The notes under the pieces are model-generated. The model was not told the origin of the DNA. It searched no databases and saw only the letters and a program-made list of their open reading frames with translations. From the NCBI GenBank assembly GCA_036507075.1, contig DASXQR010000060.1:1-64000 (forward strand): 64,000 bases of DNA, given 5' to 3'. The stretch is from Acidobacteriota bacterium. Lineage in GTDB: Bacteria; Acidobacteriota; UBA6911; JACQSX01. This document shows positions 2,683-13,509 of this stretch, one piece after another. A program made the position numbers and the translations under genes. Each line of letters starts with the position of its first letter. Position 1 is the stretch's first letter.

Positions 2683-4377
2683 CTACCGCACACTCAGGCC
2701 CTTGTCCTCGTCTGCCAGATAGAACTTGTCGGCCGCCACATTCGCGAACTCCTGCTTTTTGCCGCTCGGCCAGAACAGCTCCACTCTGTCGACTTTGACG
2801 CTGCTGCCCAAGCCAAATACCAGCGGAAGCTGGCTCTGGCTGCAGTAGCTTGAACCGCTGTGCACGACCTGCTGCTGGGCGGTTCCGCCGCTCCAGATCT
2901 TTACCAGGGTTCCGATCCCGTCCCTGTTGCTGCGAGATCCCCGGGTCTGCACGCTCAACCAGTGATGGGCGTTGATTCTTCGATTCTCGAACAGATAGGC
3001 CGGACCGTTGTTGGTCGTGACCACCAGGTCCAGGTCGCCATCGCGGTCAAAGTCGCCGCAGGCGGCGCCGCGCGCCACTTTCGGCCTGGCAAATTCAGCG
3101 CCTGCCTGCAGCGCGACGTCGGTAAACTGCTTTCGAGAGCGGTTCCAGAAAAGATGCGGCGGCTGCGCGTAAGTGACACGCTTCTGAACTTTATTGATGT
3201 CGTTCTCCACATGCCCGTTGGCCACATAGATATCCGGCCGGCCATCCAGGTCGAAATCGAAAAAGAAGGTGGCAAAGGCGAGCGTGAGAAGACTTTGCTG
3301 CCCGATCGTCGTGCTGGGCGCCTCGTCCACAAACAGACCGTTGCCTTCGTTGTGATAAAGCGACAGCATTTCGTTTGAAAAATTTCCGATCACCAGGCTG
3401 AAGGCGCCGCTTCCGTCATAATCGCCGGCGTCGACGCCCATGGCCCCGCGCGCCACGCCTTCCTCGCTGTACGCGATGCCCGCCAGCATTCCCTTCTCGG
3501 TGAAGGTGCCGTTGCGATTGTTCTGATACAGCTTGTTCGGCTGCGTGTCATTGGCCACAAAAAGATCAGGCCAACCGTCGCGGTTATAGTCGACCACGCA
3601 CACGCCCAGTCCTTTGGACGTGGGATCTTCCAGGCCCGCTTTCCTGGTTGCATCTTCAAACTTTCCGTTTCCCAGGTTCCGGTACAGCCGCCCGCTGACA
3701 CCGTTATAGGACTCCGGCGTGCAGTAGGACTTGTTTATTCCGTCCAGCGTGCAGTAAATATCCTTTTCCGGGCTCCACGCCACATAGTTGGCCACGTAGA
3801 GATCCAGCCGGCCGTCTTTGTCGAAATCAAACCACGCGGCGCTGGTTCCAAAATCACGGCCCTTGAGTCCGCTTGCCGCCGTGACATCGCTGAAGGTCTC
3901 ATTGCCGTTGTTGCGGTACAGCCTTCCGCCGTTCAGGGCGGAAACGTAAATATCGTCGCGCCCGTCATTGTCGTAGTCGCCCACTGCGCAGCCCATGCCG
4001 TACAACTCCACGGCTAGCCCCGCCGAACGGGTCACGTTGACGAATTTTTTTCCGCCCACATTCTTGTACAGCGCCATGTAAGTCGGGCCCTTGCCGCTTC
4101 CGGGCCAGTGGGCGCTGTTGATCAGCAGAATGTCCTGAAAACCATCGCCGTTGAAATCCAGGAAGGCGCAGCCGCTTCCCATCGTTTCGGGAAGGAATTT
4201 CTTGCCCGCAGCGCCGGAATTGTGAGTGAACCGGATGCCCAGTGCCCGCGTGACGTCAACATATTTCACACTCAGCGGCGGAGCCGCCGCACTGGGGGGA
4301 TTCAGGCGTGTCGGTAAAAAAGGCGCTAAAACCAGCAAAGCAAGCAGGAGGCGATTGTGGGATTCTAACTTCAACAT
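2683..4377 (-). CDS. CRTAC1-family ASPIC/UnbV + FG-GAP repeat protein
   Basis: Signal peptide after MLKLESHNR, repeated DxDxDGxxD motifs (DFNGDGFQDI, DYDNDGRDDI, DFDKDGRLDL) and C-terminal GSSYCSQSQLPLVFGLG..VELFWPSG. Start moved to ATG 4377, just after the upstream gene's stop. Confidence 0.9.
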   Translation of the reverse strand: MLKLESHNRLLLALLVLAPFLPTRLNPPSAAAPPLSVKYVDVTRALGIRFTHNSGAAGKKFLPETMGSGCAFLDFNGDGFQDILLINSAHWPGSGKGPTYMALYKNVGGKKFVNVTRSAGLAVELYGMGCAVGDYDNDGRDDIYVSALNGGRLYRNNGNETFSDVTAASGLKGRDFGTSAAWFDFDKDGRLDLYVANYVAWSPEKDIYCTLDGINKSYCTPESYNGVSGRLYRNLGNGKFEDATRKAGLEDPTSKGLGVCVVDYNRDGWPDLFVANDTQPNKLYQNNRNGTFTEKGMLAGIAYSEEGVARGAMGVDAGDYDGSGAFSLVIGNFSNEMLSLYHNEGNGLFVDEAPSTTIGQQSLLTLAFATFFFDFDLDGRPDIYVANGHVENDINKVQKRVTYAQPPHLFWNRSRKQFTDVALQAGAEFARPKVARGAACGDFDRDGDLDLVVTTNNGPAYLFENRRINAHHWLSVQTRGSRSNRDGIGTLVKIWSGGTAQQQVVHSGSSYCSQSQLPLVFGLGSSVKVDRVELFWPSGKKQEFANVAADKFYLADEDKGLSVR

Positions 4378-4384
4378 TTTCTGT

Positions 4385-7279
4385 TCAATTCTGGTATCCA
4401 GGCGAGGCTTTGAGATCGGCATAATCGAGGGCATTATAATGAACGTGAATTGGCTGGCGCTCGTTATTGTCATGCAGGTTCTGCCGGCGATAGGCGCCGG
4501 TGATAAACTGCGCCGCTTCTTCAGCCTTAAAGCGGCGGTAAAGCTTCTGCTCGCGCAGCGCGTTGGCCTCATCGCCAATTCCCTGGTAACAGAGCATCAG
4601 GTTGTAGTGGGCCTGCAGATCCTCCATGTCTATCTTCAAAGCCTCCTGAAACTCGCCAATGGCACTCCGAAAATCACGCTTCAGGAAAAGGACGCGCCCT
4701 GCCTGGTTTCGCACCACGCGATCGCGCGGATATGCGGAAAGCGTCTTTCGAAAATGCGCCAGGGCTTCGTCATAACGCCCCTGGGTCTTCAGAGTCAGCC
4801 CGTAGAAAAAGTGGGCGCGCGGCAGCGCAGGGTCCAGTTGCAGTGCCTTTTTGAGATACTCCTGCGCGCCCTCCGGATTGCCTTCCTGCACCCGCACTCT
4901 GGCCACGTTGACCCAGCCGTCCACGTATTGCGGCTCAATCTTCGTGACTTGCTGGAACACCCACTCGGCTCCTTTCAAGTCTCCCTGGAGCAGCAGGCCG
5001 ATTCCAAAATCATTCCAGCGTTCGCGTTCCTGCAATCGGGCATCGGCGACCTGGTCGAGTTTCTTTGCCACCTGGAGGCTCTTCTGATCCTCGGCCATTA
5101 CCACGATCGGCAGGTCCGGAATCTCTTTCAGCTCTCCGCTCACGTTCGAAGTGTCTCCGGTAAATATCCAGCGACCGTCATCGTGCGCGGCCGTCAGCGA
5201 GAAATCCTTGTGCTCGGGATCCCGCACTCCGGCATAAGCCCACTGCGTGTTCCACCAGGCGAACTTGCGATAGTTCACTTTGGCGGTAAATCGGATTTTC
5301 CCGGAAACGCCTTCCGGGATTTTCACGTTGAAGTGCACTGTGTCGGCGGCTCCGGGCGGAATCAGGCGCACGTAAAGAACGGAACGGGTCGCCCAGGCGT
5401 TCCGCTTGGTGATCGGGTTGCCATGTTCGTCCAGTTGAAACGATTTGTAGAAATGCGCTCCCGGTTCGACCGGCCCTTTTCGGCCGTTGTCGGGCGGATC
5501 CTGCGTCATGCCGCTCCAATAGAAGACATTTCCCTTCTCATCTTCGCCTTTCAGCTCGGTCCAGACGTCGAACGCGTCGACCGTTCCGCCGGGAAAAAAG
5601 TGGCCGATGCCGCGCGTTCGTACTACCACATGCACATTGACGGTTTCACCGGCGCGCACGGATGTTCCCTCTTTCGGCAGTGGAGCCACAAGCCTTGACG
5701 GATCGGTGATGGACCCGGCCGCCGCCGCTCCGCCCAATGACTCTTCACCCACGGCAAAGGTGCTGGAGAGCGCTACGTCACCCTCACCGGAACGCCTGCG
5801 CGCCTCTTCCTTGACGCCCACCGGCGCCGTGCCTTGGTGCGTGATTCCAAAAATATCCACCGTGAGCTGCTTGGCCTTCAAGAATTCTTCCACCACCTTG
5901 AGCTGCTCGGAATCCCTGTTGGCGACCGGAAGCGCCGTGTTGGCCCCAGGGAAACGATGCGAGTGAACTTTGCCGTTCACGTTGCCCGCGTCCCTTGAGT
6001 CCACCAGCGGCATATGGCAGCCCACGCACTTCTTTGGCTCCTTGGGATAGTAGAAGGACCTGGCGCCCTGGCCGGATACCCCGCTCGCCTGCCAGTTGTC
6101 GTAATCATTGAATCCGCGCACCCAGCGATAATGGTTCACCGGCACATCGAGGTGGACCTTGTGGCAACTGGAACAAAACTCGGCCGTGTTGTTCCGCACG
6201 AAAGGCTTCAAGAAGGTGCGGCGATGCGGCTTGGGGTTGATGCGCACCACAAAATCGTGCACTCCCTTGATGATCGGATTCTTGCTCACGGCAAGATCAT
6301 GCAGCGGCGGATACTCGATCACGAACCCGCCGTTGCCCATCGAATTCTTCACCTCCACAATGCTGTGGCATGAAGTGCAGGCCAGGCCGGCCTGGGCCTC
6401 CGGAGTGTTGATCTGGGGCTTGATCGGCTTTTCAAAACGGCCGTTGAAAAAAACGGCGTGATCGTGGCACCCGGCACACCACTTTGACGGAGTGGTGCCG
6501 ACAACATCCTGCATGTACTCGACGGACTTCCGGTACCACTGGTTATTGAAGGACGAAAAATGATGGGCAGAGGAAAACCACTGCTTGTAAATATCCGCGT
6601 GGCATCCTGACGTAGCGCACGAGTCCGAGTGCATGAAAAAGTTCGATGGGATGATGTTGCGCGTGTTCGTGTCGGAACTCGACGGGAAGAACGGTCTTGC
6701 CGTTCCACCCGCCTCTTCTTCCATCGAGAGCGGCGTCTGGATCTCGTTGTCGATGCTGTCAACCGGATCAGGATAAAAGCGCTGATAGGTCTTCACTCCC
6801 GTCGGAAGCAGAATCCCCAGGGCCATCAGAGTAAGCACAGAAAGCGCAAACCGTCCTCCGGGGATGCCTCCCGCGGAAGCAAGGTTCCGCTCGGCCGCTG
6901 CAGACTCATCGGCCTGAGCGGGTTTGTCCCGGCGCATGAACTGGTGCAGGCTTGACGCCAGCCAGGTGACGCTGCCAGCTGTCGCCAGACCTATGTGAAC
7001 GTAAACGAGCATCATATTGGCCCGCAGTGCGCCCACAAAAGTAAGCCAGATTCCCAGCGCGCCTCCCAACAGGAAAAGCAGGTAGCCCGCCTTCTGAAGC
7101 GAAGTGGAACAGAGCCTTCGACCGACTATCACAAAGAAGGCCAGCAGCGCCCATCCGCCTACCACATGCACCAGCGTGTTTAACACGTAGAGGACGGTGG
7201 GATCCGTGAAGGCGAAAACGTAGCCACTGTTGAGAAGAAAGAGCGCCACAGCCAGTGTGGCCAGTCGCCTGAGCGTCAT
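4385..7279 (-). CDS. membrane-anchored multiheme c-type cytochrome with C-terminal TPR repeats
   Basis: N-terminal TM helices, heme motifs CAGCH, CTSCH, CSSCH, CVGCH plus atypical CATSGCH, and TPR helices (AHFFYGLTLKTQGRYDEALAHF). Start moved to MTLRRL at 7279 because the upstream codons are repeat-derived. Confidence 0.88.
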   Translation of the reverse strand: MTLRRLATLAVALFLLNSGYVFAFTDPTVLYVLNTLVHVVGGWALLAFFVIVGRRLCSTSLQKAGYLLFLLGGALGIWLTFVGALRANMMLVYVHIGLATAGSVTWLASSLHQFMRRDKPAQADESAAAERNLASAGGIPGGRFALSVLTLMALGILLPTGVKTYQRFYPDPVDSIDNEIQTPLSMEEEAGGTARPFFPSSSDTNTRNIIPSNFFMHSDSCATSGCHADIYKQWFSSAHHFSSFNNQWYRKSVEYMQDVVGTTPSKWCAGCHDHAVFFNGRFEKPIKPQINTPEAQAGLACTSCHSIVEVKNSMGNGGFVIEYPPLHDLAVSKNPIIKGVHDFVVRINPKPHRRTFLKPFVRNNTAEFCSSCHKVHLDVPVNHYRWVRGFNDYDNWQASGVSGQGARSFYYPKEPKKCVGCHMPLVDSRDAGNVNGKVHSHRFPGANTALPVANRDSEQLKVVEEFLKAKQLTVDIFGITHQGTAPVGVKEEARRRSGEGDVALSSTFAVGEESLGGAAAAGSITDPSRLVAPLPKEGTSVRAGETVNVHVVVRTRGIGHFFPGGTVDAFDVWTELKGEDEKGNVFYWSGMTQDPPDNGRKGPVEPGAHFYKSFQLDEHGNPITKRNAWATRSVLYVRLIPPGAADTVHFNVKIPEGVSGKIRFTAKVNYRKFAWWNTQWAYAGVRDPEHKDFSLTAAHDDGRWIFTGDTSNVSGELKEIPDLPIVVMAEDQKSLQVAKKLDQVADARLQERERWNDFGIGLLLQGDLKGAEWVFQQVTKIEPQYVDGWVNVARVRVQEGNPEGAQEYLKKALQLDPALPRAHFFYGLTLKTQGRYDEALAHFRKTLSAYPRDRVVRNQAGRVLFLKRDFRSAIGEFQEALKIDMEDLQAHYNLMLCYQGIGDEANALREQKLYRRFKAEEAAQFITGAYRRQNLHDNNERQPIHVHYNALDYADLKASPGYQN

Positions 7280-7310
7280 GATGCAGAGCAGTAATTGAAA
7301 TTGAGGACTG

Positions 7311-7361
7311 AAATTGGGGACTGTCCCCAATCTAAATTTAAAAGGGGGACTGTCCCCAATT
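7311..7361. repeat. GGGGACAGTCCCC/GGGGACTGTCCCC palindromic REP cluster (also ~19884-19969, ~40715-40773)
   Basis: Two to three copies of the 13-bp palindrome, or a close variant, in each of three intergenic spacers. Confidence 0.85.
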
Positions 7362-7389
7362 AAGCGCAGCAATTAAGCGCATCTCGAAC

Positions 7390-8439
7390 TCAGAACCGGT
7401 GCGAATAACCGATCAGAATGATGTAATCCGCGAACGCCGCATCTCCTTGACGACCGACAAGAATATCGGACACGCTTCGCGTACGATTACGAGAAATCGC
7501 AAATGGGACGCTGAATCCGACCGTATCACCACCGCGAGAGAGGACCCAACCCGGCTCCAGGGAAACCGCATAACCGGGACGCCGAAATCCATTGCTCTTT
7601 CCGATCAAATCTCTTGCCGGGATCCCTTCCCAGCGCCCGGCCATAGTAAGCGAGAATCCATGCTCGGGAAAGATGGGATAGGATACGCCCAGGCGCAAAA
7701 GATACTGGTCAGCCACCGACATGATGGCCTCGGAGGGTCGACCGCGAAAAGTAGGCACTCCGTTTGTGTCTTTCGGGTTAAAGAGGTAGGTCCCCGCCAG
7801 CGTTACCGTACTCCTCTTGATCCGCTTGAATGCCATTGTATCCAGTATGAAGCCGTAACCGCCATCACCTGCCTGGATCGATTGATCAACCGTGCGTACC
7901 TGCGGACCGGACGCCGTCAGAAACGTATCGCTATTCCCCGGCTCCCCCGTGGGAAACTTTACTCCCAAACCCACGGATATATTCTGCTGCGAGTGCGTTG
8001 ATGGGTTACCCAGCCAGGTTCTTCCCGACACAGCGAGGTCCCCGATTCCATTTGTTTCGGTGGTGAAGCGGCTTCCAGCGGACCGTTGCGACCGATCGGC
8101 GATGAGCAGCGGCATACTGACTGACATGCTTAACCGTTCATTAAAGGAATACGTGGCGCCGAAATCCATCAAGTGAATGTTATTGAGCACTTCACTGCCC
8201 TCACTCAGACGGTTCTTCTGCTCTACTTTTCCGACAAAGTGGCGGTCCGATCTTTGGAATCGATAGCCTGTAAAGACCTGCCATTTCCCTTTGGCGAGAA
8301 ACGGGCTCCTGTCTGTGCCAATCACGGGCACGCTTGCGCGGGCGGCGACTCAACCTTGGCCGGAGGCGGTATTGGAGAATCCGGCGAAAAGGAAAGCCGC
8401 AATGTTCAGGGACGCTAAGCCGCGACAGAAATGGGACAT
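7390..8439 (-). CDS. outer-membrane transporter-like protein (MetA-pathway/'transporter' type), putative selenoprotein with in-frame TGA at codon 30
   Basis: SD GGAAGGAGAGG precedes ATG 8439. Signal peptide MSHFCRGLASLNIAAFLFAGFSNTASG is followed by QG-TGA-VAARASVPV, in frame with the 313-aa ORF. The body has GIGDL and GLGVKFPTG motifs and a barrel-type terminal YSHRF. Confidence 0.8.
8310..8349 (-). promoter_or_regulatory. candidate bacterial SECIS element
   Basis: Hairpin GTGCC-CGTGATT-GGCAC whose G-containing loop starts ~23 nt 3' of the TGA at 8350-8352. Confidence 0.5.
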
Positions 8440-8512
8440 TGATCCTCTCCTTCCACGCGTCATGTTTTCTTGAACAATCTGAGGCAAACAACACCGATTC
8501 GGCTAAGCCGAA

Positions 8513-8528
8513 AGCATCTGCCGTGCCA
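8513..8528 (-). promoter_or_regulatory. sigma-54 (-24/-12) promoter
   Basis: TGGCACG-GCAG-ATGCT versus consensus TGGCACG-N4-TTGCW, ~75 nt upstream of ATG 8439. An NtrC-type activator is encoded divergently. Confidence 0.75.
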
Positions 8529-8696
8529 AAAAGGCCTCCAGCCGAGTTCGTCTTTGTAAATATCTGTCTATAAAAGATAAAAGCGACCCACGGTGGCCGC
8601 TCTTCAAGCCTAAGGTGTTCTCTTTTCTCATAATCCATAAGAACTCCCTTAAGCTAATGACAGTCTTTATGGAGCGAGTCTCGCATTGACAACCCG

Positions 8697-10364
8697 TTGT
8701 TTCTAAGAATATCCTCGATGAATCCTGAGCTCTTAGATCCTATGAACAGTTCGTTCCGTGTCACTGGGTGGTTTCAGACTCCGCACATAAAAATTACGAT
8801 CCTTCTTTTCCTGGCCGTTCTTGTGATCAATATTCTCGCGGTATGGGGAATCATTTCGGCCCATCGCAGTGCTCGATCTACCGCACTGCACGACCTGCAG
8901 CTTGAAACTTCAGCGCACGCTCGTTCTCTGGAAGCACTGCTTGCCTCGCGTCGCGGCGATGCTTTATTTCTGGCGCAGTCGCGGCCTTTCGCAAACGTTT
9001 CTTCCCTCTTCTCAAGCTCGAATCCCCTGATCCGCCGATGGGGTCGGATCGACCTGGAGGCATCCATTTTGCTTTTTATGGGAGCTCATCCTGAGATCGA
9101 GCGAATCGTCCTTCGCGATCCAAGCGGGCAACCATTGCTGGTTGGCGGGCGGCGGCAACAGTTTCCCGTTTTGCTGCCTGCTCAGAACGTCGCGTCAGAC
9201 GACCAGAACAGAACATTGAAGGGAATTTTCCCACTCGACACGGGTGGCAGACAGGAAGGTACGCTCGAAGTTCTACTTGGTGTACCCAAACTGCTGGCCA
9301 TTGCCGCTCCGGGAGTGAGATCCGGTTTTGCCATTCAGGAGCGGGCCTCAATCCAGCCTTCCTCTTCAATCACGGGTGACGTGATGGTGGTTTCAGCCCC
9401 GATTCGTGATTCAGGCTGGAATCCCCCCGTTCAGTGGACGCTGGTTGGACGCGAAAGCGAAAGCCGGCTGCTTCAATCCATCGCCGCTCTTGCCGTGCGA
9501 TACCGCACTACCGTAATTCTGAACCTGGTTGTTATAACGCTCGCCCTGCTGGTCGGCGTCGTCGCCTTCCATCAAGTTCGCAGCCGGGTGACGCTGGAGG
9601 AAGACGGGCGCCATCAGGCGGAACTTCGGAGGTTGGAGCACCAGTTAATGCACAATGAAAGACTTGCCAGCGTGGGAAGAATGGCCGCCGGCATCGCGCA
9701 TGAGATAAACAATCCGCTCGAAGGAATGGCAAACTATTTGAGCCTGATGGAAGACGACCTTCAGAGCGGCCATACCGCCGAAGCTCTGAAAATCAGCGGC
9801 AAAGTCCGAGAGGGACTGGATCGGGCCGCCGGCATCATCCGCCAGGTATTGACGTTCTCGGGACCCGGTTCGCTCCCCAGCGCTCCGGTGGAATTGAAAG
9901 ACGTGCTGCGTGAGACCGTGCAATTCGTCCGCTCCCACCCATCTTTCAGAAACGTAGACGTGAAGCTTGAAACTCCTCCCGATGAGCTTTGGCTCGCAGG
10001 CAACCGTATCACGCTCGGCCAGTTGTTTTTGAACCTGATGATCAATGCGTGCGAAGCCCAGCCCTCGGGCGGGAAGGTGGAAGTTAGATTGAGTCGCAGC
10101 GGACAAACGGCATCGATCACCGTATCGGACGAAGGACCCGGCATTCCGGCCGACGCTCTTACGCGCATATTCGAGCCGTTTTACTCGGCAAAAGGGTCCG
10201 CCGGGTTAGGCCTTTTTGTCTGCCACGGCATCGTCGGCCAGCATCACGGTCAGATCCGCGCCCACAACCGGCGCGACCGGGGAGCGATCTTTGAAGTTGA
10301 ATTGTCCGGACTTATTGCCGAACAGGCCACACTGAGGCAACTGGAACATCGGGCGGCGGTTTGA
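8697..10364 (+). CDS. membrane sensor histidine kinase (NtrB-like)
   Basis: Two TM segments, H-box ERLASVGRMAAGIAHEINNPL, N-box QLFLNLMINACEA, DEGPGI and GLGL. The start may be 8718 or 8742. Confidence 0.92.
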   Translation: MFLRISSMNPELLDPMNSSFRVTGWFQTPHIKITILLFLAVLVINILAVWGIISAHRSARSTALHDLQLETSAHARSLEALLASRRGDALFLAQSRPFANVSSLFSSSNPLIRRWGRIDLEASILLFMGAHPEIERIVLRDPSGQPLLVGGRRQQFPVLLPAQNVASDDQNRTLKGIFPLDTGGRQEGTLEVLLGVPKLLAIAAPGVRSGFAIQERASIQPSSSITGDVMVVSAPIRDSGWNPPVQWTLVGRESESRLLQSIAALAVRYRTTVILNLVVITLALLVGVVAFHQVRSRVTLEEDGRHQAELRRLEHQLMHNERLASVGRMAAGIAHEINNPLEGMANYLSLMEDDLQSGHTAEALKISGKVREGLDRAAGIIRQVLTFSGPGSLPSAPVELKDVLRETVQFVRSHPSFRNVDVKLETPPDELWLAGNRITLGQLFLNLMINACEAQPSGGKVEVRLSRSGQTASITVSDEGPGIPADALTRIFEPFYSAKGSAGLGLFVCHGIVGQHHGQIRAHNRRDRGAIFEVELSGLIAEQATLRQLEHRAAV

Positions 10365-10365
10365 A

Positions 10366-11754
10366 ATGATCAAGTTTCGTGGAACTGTTTTGATTGTCGA
10401 CGACGAGTCCTACGTAAGGGAATCGCTGGCGACCGTGCTGGCGCGTAAGGGCTACCAGGTACGGACGGCAGCCGGCGTCGAAGAGGCGCTGCGGGACGGG
10501 ATCCTGGAAGGGCTCGACGCCGTCATTACAGATCTGCGCATGCCGGGAACCGGAGGCCTGGAGTTGATCCGGAAGCTCGCCGCCGCCGCGCCCGGACTTC
10601 CCGTAATCGTGTTGACCGGCCACGGAACGGTTCCTTCCGCGGTGGAATGCATAAAAGAGGGCGCCGCCGACTACCTCCTCAAGCCTGCCAATCCGGAAGC
10701 TCTGCTGCTGATCCTGGAGCGCGCGCTGGCGCAAAGCACCATGCGGCGCGAGCTGGAATACCTGCGCGTGGGAAATCGCCGCGCCGCGCACCGCGAACCT
10801 CAAGGGGTCAGCGCCGGATGGAAGACTGTGATGGAAATGGTGGAAGCCGCCGCTCCCACCGATACGACCGTGCTGCTGCTGGGCGAATCCGGCACCGGCA
10901 AAGAGGAGGTCGCCCAGGTGCTGCACCGAAGGAGCAGCCGCGCCCGCTTTCCGTTCGTCAAGGTAAATTGCGCCGCCATCCCGCTCGAGTTGTTTGAAAG
11001 CGAATTCTTCGGCCACCGCCGCGGGGCCTTCACCGGCGCCACTGCGGACCGCGACGGCAGATTTCGCATCGCAAACAACGGCACACTTTTCATGGATGAG
11101 ATCGATTCGATGCCCGAAGCGGCCCAGATGAAAGTACTGCGCGTTCTTCAGGATGGAGTATTTGAGAGAGTGGGCGAAAGTCACCCCACCTCTGTGAATG
11201 TGCGCATCATTGCGGCCAGCAACTCCGATGTGGAAGCCGAAGTCGAGGCCGGCAGATTTCGAAGCGATCTTTTTTACCGCATCAACGTGATGACTATTCA
11301 TGTGCCGCCGCTGCGTCAACGACGCGAGGATATTCCGGTGCTGGCAAGCCTGTTTCTGGAGGAATTCTCCGCACGCATTCAAAAGCCTGTGCGCGCGATC
11401 AGTCCTGAGGCCATGAAGCATCTGGAAAGCTACAGATGGCCTGGAAACGTCCGCGAGCTTCGCAACGTGATCGAGCGCGCCGTGATCCTGGAGAAAACTG
11501 AAGGACTCCTGCCGTCAAGCCTTCCATTTAACCTGGTCCAGGAGGGCCGTCCCGAGCACGTCAACGACCTGAACCTGAGATCGCTGCTTGCCGCCGAAGA
11601 GCGCCGCGTGCTGCAGGAAGCGTTGCGGCGAAGTAAGGGGGTAAAGCGCGAGGCTGCGCGGTTGCTCGGAGTGGACGAGCGCAATCTGGGTTACTTCATC
11701 AAGAAGCATGGATTGCAAAAAGAATCTTCTCAAAAGCGCGATCTGCATAACTGA
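10366..11754 (+). CDS. sigma-54-dependent response regulator (NtrC family)
   Basis: Receiver domain (VDDE, TDLRMP), Walker A GESGTGKE, GAFTGA, WPGNVREL and C-terminal HTH. Confidence 0.95.
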   Translation: MIKFRGTVLIVDDESYVRESLATVLARKGYQVRTAAGVEEALRDGILEGLDAVITDLRMPGTGGLELIRKLAAAAPGLPVIVLTGHGTVPSAVECIKEGAADYLLKPANPEALLLILERALAQSTMRRELEYLRVGNRRAAHREPQGVSAGWKTVMEMVEAAAPTDTTVLLLGESGTGKEEVAQVLHRRSSRARFPFVKVNCAAIPLELFESEFFGHRRGAFTGATADRDGRFRIANNGTLFMDEIDSMPEAAQMKVLRVLQDGVFERVGESHPTSVNVRIIAASNSDVEAEVEAGRFRSDLFYRINVMTIHVPPLRQRREDIPVLASLFLEEFSARIQKPVRAISPEAMKHLESYRWPGNVRELRNVIERAVILEKTEGLLPSSLPFNLVQEGRPEHVNDLNLRSLLAAEERRVLQEALRRSKGVKREAARLLGVDERNLGYFIKKHGLQKESSQKRDLHN

Positions 11755-11760
11755 GAGGCT

Positions 11761-13509
11761 GTGAACAGAAAATCGCTGCTGATCATCCTGCTGCTGATCG
11801 CCGGTTGCCGCCCGGAGGGGCCTCCCCGGCAGGAAGCGACTCAGTCGTCCCAGCCCGATTCCATCAAGGAGGCGCCCCGCTCCACCCCGCAACAGACTGC
11901 GGTGATGGCCCCACCTCCATCTGAAGGCATTTTTACCAACATCACTGCAGCCGCGGGCATAAAGTTCTCTCACTTCAACGATGCTTCGGGCCGAAAGTAT
12001 CTGCCTGAGACGATGGGGTCAGGCGCGGCTTTCTTCGATTATGACGGAGACGGCAGGCCTGACCTGTACCTGGTCAATGGCTGCCCCATTTTGGGCGACC
12101 GGCACGGCGCCAAAAGCGGCGTCCTGTACCGCAATCTGGACGGGCTTCACTTCCAGGACGTGACTCGCCAGGCCGGACTGGCGGAAGTTTTCTACGGGAT
12201 GGGGGCCGCGGTGGGCGACATCGATAATGACGGTCACATCGACTTGTTTGTTGCCGGGCTTGACGGAGACCGTCTTTTCCGCAACCGAGGGGACGGAAGT
12301 TTTGAAGACGTGACCCAAAAGATGGGGTTGGCCGACCGAGGCTTCGGCTCCAGCGCCGCTTTCCTGGACTATGACAGAGACGGATACCTTGACCTTTTCG
12401 TCGGCCGCTACGTGCAATGGAGTCCAGCCACCGACATCGCTTGCAAACCCGACGGAGTACACCGCGTCTACTGCACTCCGGAAGTGTATCGCGGGCAGAG
12501 TAATCGCCTTTATCACAACATCCGGGGACGCAGGTTTGAAGACATCACCCGCAGCTCAGGTACTTATAATCCTGACGGAAAAACTCTGGGCGTGGCTATC
12601 CTCGACCACAACCGCGATGGATGGCCGGACATTGCTGTGGCCAACGACACGGCACGGAATTTTCTGTTTATCAATAACCGCGACGGTACCTTCTCGGAAA
12701 TGGGCGTCATCTCCGGGATGGCATACAGCGAATCGGGAGCGACGCGCGGCGGAATGGGAATTGATGCCGCCGACGTGGACGGCGACGGCTACACCGACAT
12801 CGTTATCGGCAATTTCGCCAACGAAATGTCGGCATTTTACCGCGGCTCTCAAAACGGCTACTACACCGACGATGCCGCCCAGGCAGGCATCGGCTTTCCC
12901 AGTCTGATGAGCCTGGCGTTCGGAACGCTCTGGGTCGACTTCGACAATGACGGATGGCTTGATCTGGTGATCGCCAACGGGCACATTGAACCTGATATTT
13001 CCAGCAGTCAGAAACTGCAAACCTATGCTCAGAAGCCTCAGTTTTTCAGAAATGACGGGCATGGGAACTTCGTCCTCGTCACTGGGGGGAAGGCCGGCCC
13101 GCTGGAAACTCCCATAGTGGGACGGGGTCTGGCCGCTGCAGATATTGACGGCGATGGCGATCTGGATCTGCTCATTACGCAAAACGGCCGGCCTCCCCGG
13201 TTGCTGCGAAATGATGCGGCACCTCACCGCTGGCTTCGAATTCAGTTAATCGGGAGTGCGAGCAACCGGACCGGATACGGAGGGACAGTTCGCGCACTCC
13301 AGGGCAGCCGAACCTGGACCCGGTCTCTTACCTCCGGACGTTCCTATCTTTCCGCTTCTGAGCCGGTGCTGAGCTTTGGTTTTGGGTCTCTTTCGAAACT
13401 GGACCGTCTGGAAATCACATGGCCCTCGGGAGCCGTGCAGACAATTCACAACCCCCCGCTCAATCAACTCCTGGCAGTGCGCGAACCACGACGCGGCAGT
13501 AGCCCTTGA
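11761..13509 (+). CDS. CRTAC1-family ASPIC/UnbV + FG-GAP lipoprotein
   Basis: Lipobox LIAGC, FG-GAP DxDxDG repeats and C-terminal GRSYLSASEPVLSFGFG..ITWPSG. Paralog of 2683-4377. Confidence 0.9.
   Translation: MNRKSLLIILLLIAGCRPEGPPRQEATQSSQPDSIKEAPRSTPQQTAVMAPPPSEGIFTNITAAAGIKFSHFNDASGRKYLPETMGSGAAFFDYDGDGRPDLYLVNGCPILGDRHGAKSGVLYRNLDGLHFQDVTRQAGLAEVFYGMGAAVGDIDNDGHIDLFVAGLDGDRLFRNRGDGSFEDVTQKMGLADRGFGSSAAFLDYDRDGYLDLFVGRYVQWSPATDIACKPDGVHRVYCTPEVYRGQSNRLYHNIRGRRFEDITRSSGTYNPDGKTLGVAILDHNRDGWPDIAVANDTARNFLFINNRDGTFSEMGVISGMAYSESGATRGGMGIDAADVDGDGYTDIVIGNFANEMSAFYRGSQNGYYTDDAAQAGIGFPSLMSLAFGTLWVDFDNDGWLDLVIANGHIEPDISSSQKLQTYAQKPQFFRNDGHGNFVLVTGGKAGPLETPIVGRGLAAADIDGDGDLDLLITQNGRPPRLLRNDAAPHRWLRIQLIGSASNRTGYGGTVRALQGSRTWTRSLTSGRSYLSASEPVLSFGFGSLSKLDRLEITWPSGAVQTIHNPPLNQLLAVREPRRGSSP

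Follow-up and report, generated by a model that had tools for sequence, protein, structure and literature searches.

On the reverse strand of the window (the whole stretch of Acidobacteriota DNA analysed here, 64,000 nucleotides in length), positions 8439..7390 very probably constitute one intact gene for an exported selenoprotein of 349 residues, in which an in-frame UGA is read as selenocysteine (Sec). A preliminary description of this DNA had proposed Sec in an exported outer-membrane protein, and the comparative sequence evidence assembled from homologous loci supports that reading.

Gene layout

The preliminary description had noted that the open reading frame called at this locus lacks a signal peptide although it ends like a beta-barrel protein, and that extending it in the 5' direction through one TGA supplies a Shine-Dalgarno sequence, an ATG, a signal peptide and QG-TGA-VAAR; all of these elements are present (Table 1). 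The read-through frame of the window translates as the ATG-initiated MSHFCRGLASLNIAAFLFAGFSNTASG-QG, the TGA at 8352-8350 and VAARASVPVIG, and signal peptidase I would cut before Q28. The bacterial lipobox consensus is [LVI][ASTVI][GAS]C. A lipoprotein, with the Cys or Sec as the lipidated +1 residue, was considered and rejected, since the residues preceding C/U are (A/G/S)-Q-G with an invariant Q and form no lipobox.

Table 1. Features of the putative selenoprotein locus (window coordinates)
Feature	Position	Strand	Remarks
Selenoprotein gene (probable)	8439..7390	-	Shine-Dalgarno sequence, ATG, signal peptide, Q-G-TGA-VAAR, predicted 12-stranded barrel, YSHRF end
Called ORF	7390..8331	-	313 aa, GTG start, no signal peptide, C-terminal GYSHRF
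Shine-Dalgarno sequence GGAGAGGA	8450-8443	-	3 nt 5' of ATG; read directly
ATG start codon	8439-8437	-	In frame 5' of the called ORF
Putative signal peptide	8359..8439	-	Residues 1-27 including start codon, ending ...NTASG; read from sequence
N-terminal segment of the predicted mature protein	8284..8358	-	Residues 28-52, starts Q-G-(U/C) then V-A-x-R; precedes first barrel strand
In-frame TGA, probable selenocysteine	8350..8352	-	Residue 30, putative mature residue 3; comparative evidence
Candidate SECIS hairpin	8315..8331	-	Stem GUGCC/GGCAC, loop CGUGAUU, over V-P-V-I-G-T codons; RNAalifold, covariation
Predicted outer-membrane beta-barrel	7393..8283	-	12 strands, residues 53-349, C-terminal Phe motif YSHRF; AF2, Foldseek
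True stop, likewise TGA	7390..7392	-	No SECIS-type hairpin 3' of the stop
Terminator-like hairpin GGGGACAGTCCCC with T-run	7345..7357	-	33 nt 3' of the stop; consensus scan only
Terminator-like hairpin 5' of the gene	8579..8604	-	Consensus scan only
Sigma-54-type -24/-12 element, TGGCAC-N5-ATGCT	8513..8528	-	74 nt 5' of ATG

The codon at the selenocysteine site across homologs

The codon aligned to the window TGA is, in the window gene and 80 homologous loci (n=81), TGA in 41, TGC in 20, TGT in 20 and nothing else, while nine further metagenome loci carry TGA in seven and Cys in two. The exact correspondence of TGA with Cys anticipated by the preliminary description is thereby borne out, as is its statement that related proteins begin QGCVA(I/A)R: 40 of the 81 have TGC or TGT, mostly within AQGCVA(V/I)R. 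The Q, the G and the C/U are invariant in all 81 and in 91 of 91 aligned sequences, and the reading frame downstream of the TGA is fully conserved in the alignment. Upstream, each of the 40 other TGA loci has a start codon, a hydrophobic leader, a small-x-small motif and then QG.

The TGA form is also broadly distributed among relatives, being shared by 40 other genomes (protein identity 41-62%) and by a second paralog of the source genome (37% identity) at the same site; its carriers belong to Acidobacteriota classes and to Planctomycetota, Verrucomicrobiota, Armatimonadota and Deferrimicrobiota. Sampling the phylum evenly showed the family in 11 of 200 other genomes, with 12 matches, of which seven contain one TGA, four cover the site and contain none, and one, from an unpublished genome (G128), stops short of it. 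A FastTree phylogeny requires at least six changes between the Sec and Cys states. All TGA-bearing relatives found derive from metagenome-assembled genomes (MAGs) or metagenomes, and all cultured strains among the 80 loci have Cys. The TGA is identical in contigs from two soil runs, which answers the concern over sequencing error.

The SECIS hairpin

A hairpin follows the codon. The window copy pairs GTGCC (8331-8327) with GGCAC (8319-8315) around the loop CGTGATT (8326-8320), and the TGA-to-loop spacing of 23 nt is as originally described. In the 41 TGA sequences RNAalifold predicts one helix of 6 bp whose offset is fixed, and a hairpin of 6-7 bp with a 7-nt loop, CGUG(C/A)UU, is kept in 41 of 41 TGA genes, the window stem having 5 bp. 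Over a 7-bp helix, 92% of 287 cells are paired, compared with 17-53% when the partner is slid; double-sided changes occur in five of seven pairs (16 cells), and the covariation score of 0.234, compared with 0.167 in shuffles, was reached by none of 500 shuffles.

Whether the RNA or the peptide is conserved was decided at synonymous sites. Across the 41 genes, third-base entropy in the hairpin codons is 0.50 (A), 0.00 (P), 0.00 (V), 0.38 (G) and 0.57 (A); for P, G and A codons of invariant motifs elsewhere in the same genes it is 1.18-1.68, with one Gly at 0.73. To judge from these alignments, the synonymous sites at the hairpin are frozen. Among 11 loci of the metagenome scan, no Cys form retaining the P-V-I-G peptide (P0004-like) was found.

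Folded alone, 40 of the 41 hairpins have an energy of -7.5 kcal/mol or less (median -11.3), and the window copy, at -7.3 kcal/mol, is the weakest of the 41 and falls just short of that value. The window stretch from the UGA to +43 folds at -12.0 kcal/mol, but with a pairing that differs from the SECIS hairpin, and the single-sequence fold of the window SECIS region gives z = 0.18. Because the window hairpin taken alone is not beyond chance, the case for a SECIS element rests on the comparative data, which are far beyond it. The rules for bacterial SECIS elements summarised in section 5 of PMC13188914, a bSECISearch-type model, specify a loop of 3-9 nt, a stem of at least 4 bp, a G at loop position 1 or 2, a UGA-to-loop distance of 16-37 nt and a free energy of -7.5 kcal/mol or lower; the window hairpin falls within those for loop, stem, position of the G and spacing.

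Decoding machinery and alternative decoding

The source genome contains selA (428 bits), selB (380 bits), a tRNA-Sec gene (selC; 71.7 bits, anticodon tca) and a selD that has one in-frame TGA and is itself Sec-containing, so that the set of sel genes on which the original proposal depended is complete. Across the comparison, selB exceeds the cut-off in 34 of 40 TGA genomes versus 9 of 40 Cys genomes; the six TGA genomes without it are all MAGs, three of them with partial matches. The Sec machinery thus tracks the TGA state.

Decoding of the UGA in another manner, by near-cognate read-through as Trp or Cys or under a reassigned code, would also hold the frame open, but nothing specific speaks for it. 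Since TGA also terminates the window gene itself and 22 of the other 40 TGA genes, the codon acts as a stop in these genomes, and this alternative is further opposed by the Cys that always occupies the aligned position in the remaining homologs, by the conserved covarying hairpin 3' of the codon, and by the presence of a Sec machinery that follows the TGA state. On this evidence, non-Sec decoding is very improbable.

Database annotation and family novelty

Among the 120 best database proteins, 110 start within about 25 residues after the Sec site and are therefore probably truncated calls, as the preliminary description had expected of gene callers, while the other ten are full-length and have Cys. 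Most database entries of the family would accordingly lack a signal peptide because they are cut at the Sec codon. The called starts nevertheless define a second alternative, in which the gene begins past the TGA at GTG 8331 and the 45 codons upstream form a small ORF of their own or a leader, as gene callers have chosen for the window and for those 110 proteins. Such a start would yield a short product without a signal peptide despite the predicted outer-membrane barrel; moreover, a signal peptide and the invariant QG lie upstream in 41 of 41 TGA genes, the upstream frame is continuous with the barrel in 40 of 40 Cys genes, and the called starts vary (VAARQ, MAARQ, VIG, MPVIG), as expected of arbitrary first start-like codons, making this account even less credible than non-Sec decoding. 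A recent nonsense mutation, pseudogene or sequencing error, the usual suspicion when one sequence shows an in-frame stop and the least probable account of all, is effectively refuted by the recurrence of the TGA in 40 genomes, seven metagenome loci and the paralog, by the agreeing contigs of two runs and by the conserved downstream frame.

With regard to novelty, the view that this is not a classical selenoprotein family agrees with its absence from the 119 families of a 2026 catalogue (Table 1 of PMC13188914), and with searches of the window protein against NCBIfam release 20.0, which matched no selenoprotein model and gave a single weak FapF match, and against Pfam, which returned no family at E <= 1. 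No description of the family was found in the openly available literature searched, one supplement of the BSepDB paper included. Altogether, this seems to be a widespread family of soil bacteria that is routinely shortened by gene callers.

Transcription and genomic neighbourhood

The terminator-like hairpin upstream of the gene (Table 1) ends the preceding transcription unit, so the selenoprotein gene should have its own promoter region, and the one after the stop suggests a monocistronic unit. The sigma-54-type motif has one match in the window against 0.12 expected, and a divergent gene for a sigma-54 activator is located at 10366-11754; a promoter of this type for the window gene is a lead rather than a finding. 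The motif is absent within 250 nt upstream in 79 of 79 related loci, which rules it out as a family-wide feature. A single RNA-library contig of 180 nt, possibly DNA carry-over, spans 7439-7618 and is not taken as expression, and the region of the TGA is uncovered by such contigs.

A conserved neighbourhood as a clue to function was likewise set aside. The nearest ORFs of TGA loci are heterogeneous, the multihaem cytochrome-TPR neighbour of the window gene recurs in 4 of 80 loci and FG-GAP/ASPIC in 5 of 80, and recurrence is otherwise confined to a TlpA/ResA-like redoxin, found nearby in 6 of 40 TGA loci and no Cys loci, and to a four-gene cluster beside Cys forms in Bacteroidota. No fap genes lie near the window gene.

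Predicted fold and possible role of selenocysteine

Structure prediction with AF2 (pLDDT 90.6 and 92.4 in two models) yields an outer-membrane barrel with 12 strands that belongs structurally with COG4313 and FapF. Foldseek gave as best matches FapF (5o67, E 2.7e-14) and the COG4313 channel 4rl8 (E 4.5e-11), with a TM score against 4rl8_C of 0.58 by query and 0.74 by target. In both models the N-terminal segment is of low confidence (pLDDT below 50; residues 1-16 in the model of the mature protein).

In the mechanism proposed here, the ribosome would read the UGA at 8352-8350 as selenocysteine, with the small SECIS hairpin recruiting SelB that carries Sec-tRNA(UCA). Export and loss of the 27-residue signal peptide would leave a mature protein beginning Q-G-U-V-A-A-R, whose N-terminal segment of about 25 residues, followed by the 12-stranded outer-membrane barrel, probably reaches into the lumen from the periplasm, by analogy with the COG4313 channel of known structure. 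Acting there as a redox-active nucleophile, the one invariant Sec/Cys would make and break a bond, selenenyl-sulfide or disulfide, to a Cys nearby, to a substrate or to a partner; reductases of the TlpA/ResA type in the periplasm would keep it reduced, and redox cycling would gate or assist passage through the channel. The preliminary description had suggested a metal- or redox-active ligand; a redox-active role of the Sec on the N-terminal segment is put forward tentatively, at somewhat short of an even chance.

Support for the redox role was drawn from the TlpA/ResA-like redoxins in six TGA loci and from second cysteines, which occur at mature positions 4-12 in 33 of 50 Cys forms and at positions 13-25, mostly position 17, in 13 of 41 Sec forms. 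However, the mature protein has no other Cys in 19 of 41 Sec forms, including that of the window, and in 14 of 50 Cys forms, so that an intramolecular redox pair is not a general mechanism.

The same selenoprotein may instead use its Q-G-U mature N-terminus as a soft-metal site that captures or senses metal at the channel, either as an amine/amide/selenolate chelate analogous to X-X-His (ATCUN) or as a Cu(I)/Hg/Ni thiolate ligand. The fixed third position of Sec/Cys in the putative mature protein, with Q and G invariant, is consistent with such a site, and the Sec forms that have no partner Cys, 19 of 41, are easier to reconcile with a ligand than with a redox pair. TlpA-type reductases prepare the Cys ligands of copper proteins, which fits the redoxin neighbours in six loci. 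In addition, metal binding or transport is the function of several catalogued selenoprotein families (Table 1 of PMC13188914). Against the metal site, no metal-handling gene is a conserved neighbour among the loci compared, the third position depends on the predicted cleavage site, and cyclisation of an N-terminal Gln may remove its amine; the idea appears rather unlikely.

A broader and more doubtful proposal is that the selenol at mature residue 3 forms the working part of the outer-membrane channel, carried on a COG4313-type plug, where it could serve as a selenium-based gate or could capture a metal, a metalloid or a reactive species of sulfur or oxygen.

Significance

The bacterial selenoproteome would gain a widespread family in Acidobacteriota, Planctomycetota, Verrucomicrobiota and Armatimonadota, phyla with few catalogued selenoproteins, together with a simple annotation rule: QG-TGA-VAAR followed by the hairpin GCGCC-CGUGCUU-GGCGC. 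A single invariant Sec/Cys at the extreme N-terminus of a predicted outer-membrane channel is an unusual spot for a catalytic-type residue, and the Cys form in cultured Bacteroidota offers a tractable entry to the function of the many uncharacterised 'MetA-pathway/transporter' barrels; Spirosoma, Algoriphagus and Flectobacillus are among the cultured carriers of a Cys homolog. Should the working selenol prove real, it would represent the first Sec-dependent transport or gating function at the cell surface and reveal a major use of selenium by soil Acidobacteriota that has gone unrecognised.

Comparison with known systems

The hairpin resembles the consensus bacterial SECIS in being a stem-loop directly 3' of the UGA and inside the coding region, with a 7-nt loop, a G at position 2 followed by U, a stem of 5-7 bp and a spacing of 23 nt. 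It departs from that consensus in its short, family-specific sequence and in the low stability of the window copy when the hairpin is folded alone.

At the protein level, COG4313/PF13557 ('MetA-pathway of phenol degradation') has a 12-stranded barrel of similar size to that predicted here, and both proteins have an N-terminal segment before strand 1, which in Pput2725 of Pseudomonas putida F1 (PDB 4rl8) occludes the lumen (PMC4493636). A precomputed PF13557 hit accompanies 20 of the 120 homologs listed, and Cys homologs from cultured strains bear the names 'transporter' or 'MetA-pathway of phenol degradation'. The window protein itself has no Pfam match at E <= 1; its identity to 4rl8 is about 13%, its N-terminal segment has about 25 residues versus about 14, and the invariant Q-G-(Sec/Cys) N-terminus is undescribed for COG4313, the word 'cysteine' occurring nowhere in PMC4493636. 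FapF, the Pseudomonas amyloid secretion channel (PDB 5o65, 5o67), is the best structural match (TM 0.71 by target) and the sole NCBIfam match, but a score of 15 bits against a cut-off of 700 for NF058560 means that the window protein is not a FapF member, and it differs further in lacking nearby fap genes and a common Sec/Cys motif.

Two predicted outer-membrane selenoproteins are listed in Table 1 of PMC13188914, the GSU2204 family CXXCH-containing MtrB/PioB-type barrel (NF041027) and the FCYXU-type TonB-dependent receptor (NF049945). The present family differs from both in fold class and size, in matching neither NCBIfam model, and in placing its putative Sec at mature residue 3 within QGU, outside a CXXCH or FCYXU motif; as both are outer-membrane barrels, selenocysteine in an exported barrel protein nonetheless has precedent.

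Gene layout and annotation

The window gene is, with high probability, a genuine and intact selenoprotein gene, and the elements from which the preliminary description had assembled it (called ORF, SD, ATG, leader, QG-TGA-VAAR and hairpin) all lie where it had placed them. It had also named sequencing error as an alternative; in contigs spanning 7300-8600 from two soil runs belonging to separate studies, one or both of which may be the source sample, the TGA is unchanged, and differences from the window occur only at 7369 and as a 16-nt insertion after 7353. Because this insertion is an extra 16-nt unit, repeat number in the 3' spacer varies; the first palindrome there is followed by a T-run and is terminator-like. 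The sigma-54-type element faces a divergent histidine kinase and sigma-54-dependent response regulator and has no counterpart upstream of 79 related genes, and no sigma-70-like promoter was found in window 7200-8700.

Features of the window gene, its surroundings and related loci
Feature	Position	Strand	Remark
Terminator-like hairpin	8604-8579	(-)	upstream of gene
Sigma-54-type -24/-12 element	8528-8513	(-)	74 nt 5' of ATG
SD GGAGAGGA	8450-8443	(-)	
ATG start	8439	(-)	
Leader MSHFCRGLASLNIAAFLFAGFSNTASG	8439-8359	(-)	27 residues
Q-G, in-frame TGA, VAARASVPVIG	TGA 8352-8350	(-)	
Hairpin GTGCC-CGTGATT-GGCAC	8331-8315	(-)	
Mechanically called ORF	7390..8331	(-)	GTG start, 313 aa; first base is the hairpin's first base
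YSHRF, stop TGA	7392-7390	(-)	frame open to here
3' spacer	7316-7380	(-)	two copies of GCGCTTAATTG, two of palindrome GGGGACAGTCCCC
Cytochrome-TPR ORF	2683-7372	(-)	ORF of 995 aa within this region, several CxxCH motifs, cytochrome c554-like match, C-terminal TPRs
Histidine kinase and response regulator	8697-11754	(+)	
Two flanking FG-GAP/UnbV_ASPIC proteins	regions 2683-7372; 11761-13509	(-); (+)	
selD	C59:4836-5753	(+)	locus L020, one in-frame TGA
Second paralog, window's genome	C132:44088-45143	(+)	locus L104 about 1479-2556, 37% identity
DUF3179 gene	L026:6119-7375	(+)	9 nt 3' of Sec barrel
Bacteroidota four-gene cluster	e.g. L072:1766-6050		around Cys barrel, loci L065-L102
Cluster gene, membrane-anchored			182 aa, C-terminus SPPPQFS, no family match
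Cluster gene, second barrel-like			roughly 300 aa, no family match
Cluster gene, PAP2/vanadium-haloperoxidase-like			roughly 512 aa

Truncation by gene callers, likewise anticipated, is widespread: in 110 of the 120 closest database entries neither leader nor QGC is present, and the sequence begins at a start-like codon up to about 25 residues past the site (VAARQ..., MAARQ..., VIGVQ..., MPVIG...), the other 10 being full-length Cys forms. Relatives are recorded as 'hypothetical protein', 'transporter' or 'MetA-pathway of phenol degradation'.

Codon state and phylogenetic distribution

A search of 5.8 billion proteins yielded 3580 relatives, and 80 loci were fetched with an alignment of 27 of them from one-genome-per-species contigs, the aligned codon being located after translating each locus upstream through stops. 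Across 81 genes, the window's included, this codon is TGA in 41 and TGC or TGT in 40 (20 each), with no other codon, exactly the Cys/TGA correspondence that had been proposed. All 40 other TGA genes possess an upstream start codon and hydrophobic leader, whose end before the TGA mostly reads (A/G)QG, and an alignment of 91 sequences shows no variation at Q28, G29 and C/U30 and very little at V31 and R34. Metagenome loci reaching the N-terminus comprise seven TGA and two Cys forms (n = 9). Furthermore, among 200 other high-quality genomes sampled evenly from the phylum, 11 hold the family (12 matches), seven matches with one TGA, four covering the site without TGA and one (genome G128, counted solely in this tally) short of it. 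The second paralog in the window's genome reads ...NAFSQG-TGA-VPAR, with its TGA at the aligned site and a hairpin, GCGCUC-AGUUU-GGGCG, offset as in the window gene.

Conservation of the TGA in relatives extends across Acidobacteriota (Blastocatellia, Pyrinomonadaceae, Thermoanaerobaculia, Holophagales, Vicinamibacterales, Bryobacteraceae) and to Planctomycetota, with single members of Verrucomicrobiota, Armatimonadota and Deferrimicrobiota. Bacteroidota and Verrucomicrobiota supply most Cys forms. The FastTree phylogeny (91 rows) requires at least six Sec/Cys changes and nests Cys forms within Sec clades, among them the window gene's four closest Cys proteins. In the same tree, the barrel of locus L026, from a record titled uncultured Heliomicrobium (Bacillota), falls among genes of Pyrinomonadaceae and other Acidobacteriota; given this position and its cytochrome-TPR neighbour, the bin label looks doubtful.

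The hairpin and the decoding machinery

On comparative evidence, the hairpin behaves as a SECIS would. The alignment of the 41 TGA genes is gap-free between the TGA and about +45, and RNAalifold gives a 6-bp helix (columns 27-32/40-45) with loop CGUG(C/A)UU. In a 7-bp version 92% of 287 cells are paired, versus 17-53% after sliding the 3' arm by 1-3 columns; in five of seven pairs both partners change (16 cells; G-C becomes A-U at two positions, for instance), the window's U-A pair being one compensatory case, and the covariation score of 0.234 (0.167 +/- 0.014 in shuffles) was reached by none of 500 shuffles. Since the helix overlaps codons for A-P-V-(L/I)-G-(A/V), peptide and RNA constraint were separated by third-base entropy in the 41 genes: values are 0.50, 0.00, 0.00, 1.62 (in the loop), 0.38 and 0.57, against 1.18-1.68, with one Gly at 0.73, for control Pro/Gly/Ala codons in invariant motifs elsewhere, and selection therefore acts on the RNA. 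Section 5 of a 2026 review (PMC13188914) gives bSECIS rules of a 3-9 nt loop with G in its first two positions followed by G or U, a stem of 4 bp or more, a distance of 16-37 nt to the UGA, and -7.5 kcal/mol or lower; the hairpin conforms in loop, stem, loop G and spacing, and by itself satisfies the energy rule in 40 of 41 genes, only the window copy (-7.3 kcal/mol) falling short. The window sequence alone folds no better than shuffles (z = 0.18).

The machinery for decoding is in place and follows codon state. The sel genes sought in the window's genome (95.7% complete) are all there: selA (428 bits), selB (380 bits), selD and tRNA-Sec (71.7 bits, anticodon tca, ARAGORN). Given its in-frame TGA, selD is itself a selenoprotein gene, and the organism makes at least one classical selenoprotein. 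A selB above the curated cut-off occurs in 34 of 40 other TGA-form genomes versus 9 of 40 Cys-form genomes; relatedness makes these genomes non-independent, hence bare counts. Six TGA genomes lack one; all are MAGs, three with partial selB-like matches.

Fold and possible role of Sec

The predicted fold class has good support: given the family alignment, AlphaFold2 produces a confident barrel (full-length pLDDT 90.6, pTM 0.85; mature form 92.4, 0.89). The top Foldseek match is FapF (5o67, E 2.7e-14), followed by the COG4313 channel Pput2725 (4rl8, E 4.5e-11), with FadL-type channels far weaker. Pput2725 is described as a barrel of 12 strands, its ~14 N-terminal residues being folded from the periplasmic side into the lumen (PMC4493636), whereas the window protein has about 25 residues before strand 1, the first being Q-G-Sec. 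We infer from homology only, because AlphaFold2 leaves this segment unplaced (pLDDT <50 in both models), that it may lie inside the lumen.

Cys patterns, gene neighbours and catalogued families together favour a Sec that is redox-active or binds a soft metal, carried on an N-terminal segment that is mobile. The mature protein has no other Cys in 19 of 41 Sec forms, the window's among them, and in 14 of 50 Cys forms; a second Cys falls at mature positions 4-12 in 33 of 50 Cys forms and 13-25 in 13 of 41 Sec forms. A TlpA/ResA-like periplasmic redoxin is encoded near the barrel gene in 6 of 40 TGA loci. The window's neighbours (multihaem cytochrome-TPR protein, two FG-GAP/ASPIC proteins, divergent histidine kinase and sigma-54 activator) recur in few loci, the cytochrome-TPR gene also adjoining the barrel in L023, L026, L028 and L033. 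For the PAP2 protein of the Bacteroidota cluster, a Bryobacteraceae relative (L066) matches vanadium chloroperoxidase domains. Most known Sec/Cys pairs sit in redox or metal sites (PMC13188914, Table 1). A redox role is the slightly favoured but tentative reading; a metal ligand is a little less likely, and the remaining probability falls to functions other than either. A lipoprotein reading does not hold under the lipobox consensus, position -2 being invariably Q.

Two side observations concern neighbouring genes. The cytochrome-TPR ORF probably begins further in than listed, since its TTG at 7372 overlaps the terminator region. Locus L026 carries two adjacent selenoprotein genes, the Sec barrel and a gene of the catalogued selenoprotein family DUF3179 with an in-frame TGA (...VATY-U-TLCH...), whose product a plain ORF call shortens to 169 aa.

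Comparison with known selenoproteins

The claim that this is not a classical selenoprotein family agrees with the catalogues: Table 1 of the 2026 review (PMC13188914) has nothing alike, NCBIfam/Pfam models of the review's families do not match the window protein, the available text of the deep-Sep and BSepDB papers mentions no outer-membrane, porin or barrel family, and no description of the family was found in the literature. Among the 119 prokaryotic families of that Table 1, two are outer-membrane barrels, the GSU2204 family and the FCYXU-type TonB receptor (PMC13188914). Having no counterpart in this catalogue, its models or the literature searched, the window gene's family is classed here as new, though of an established type, with canonical bacterial decoding.
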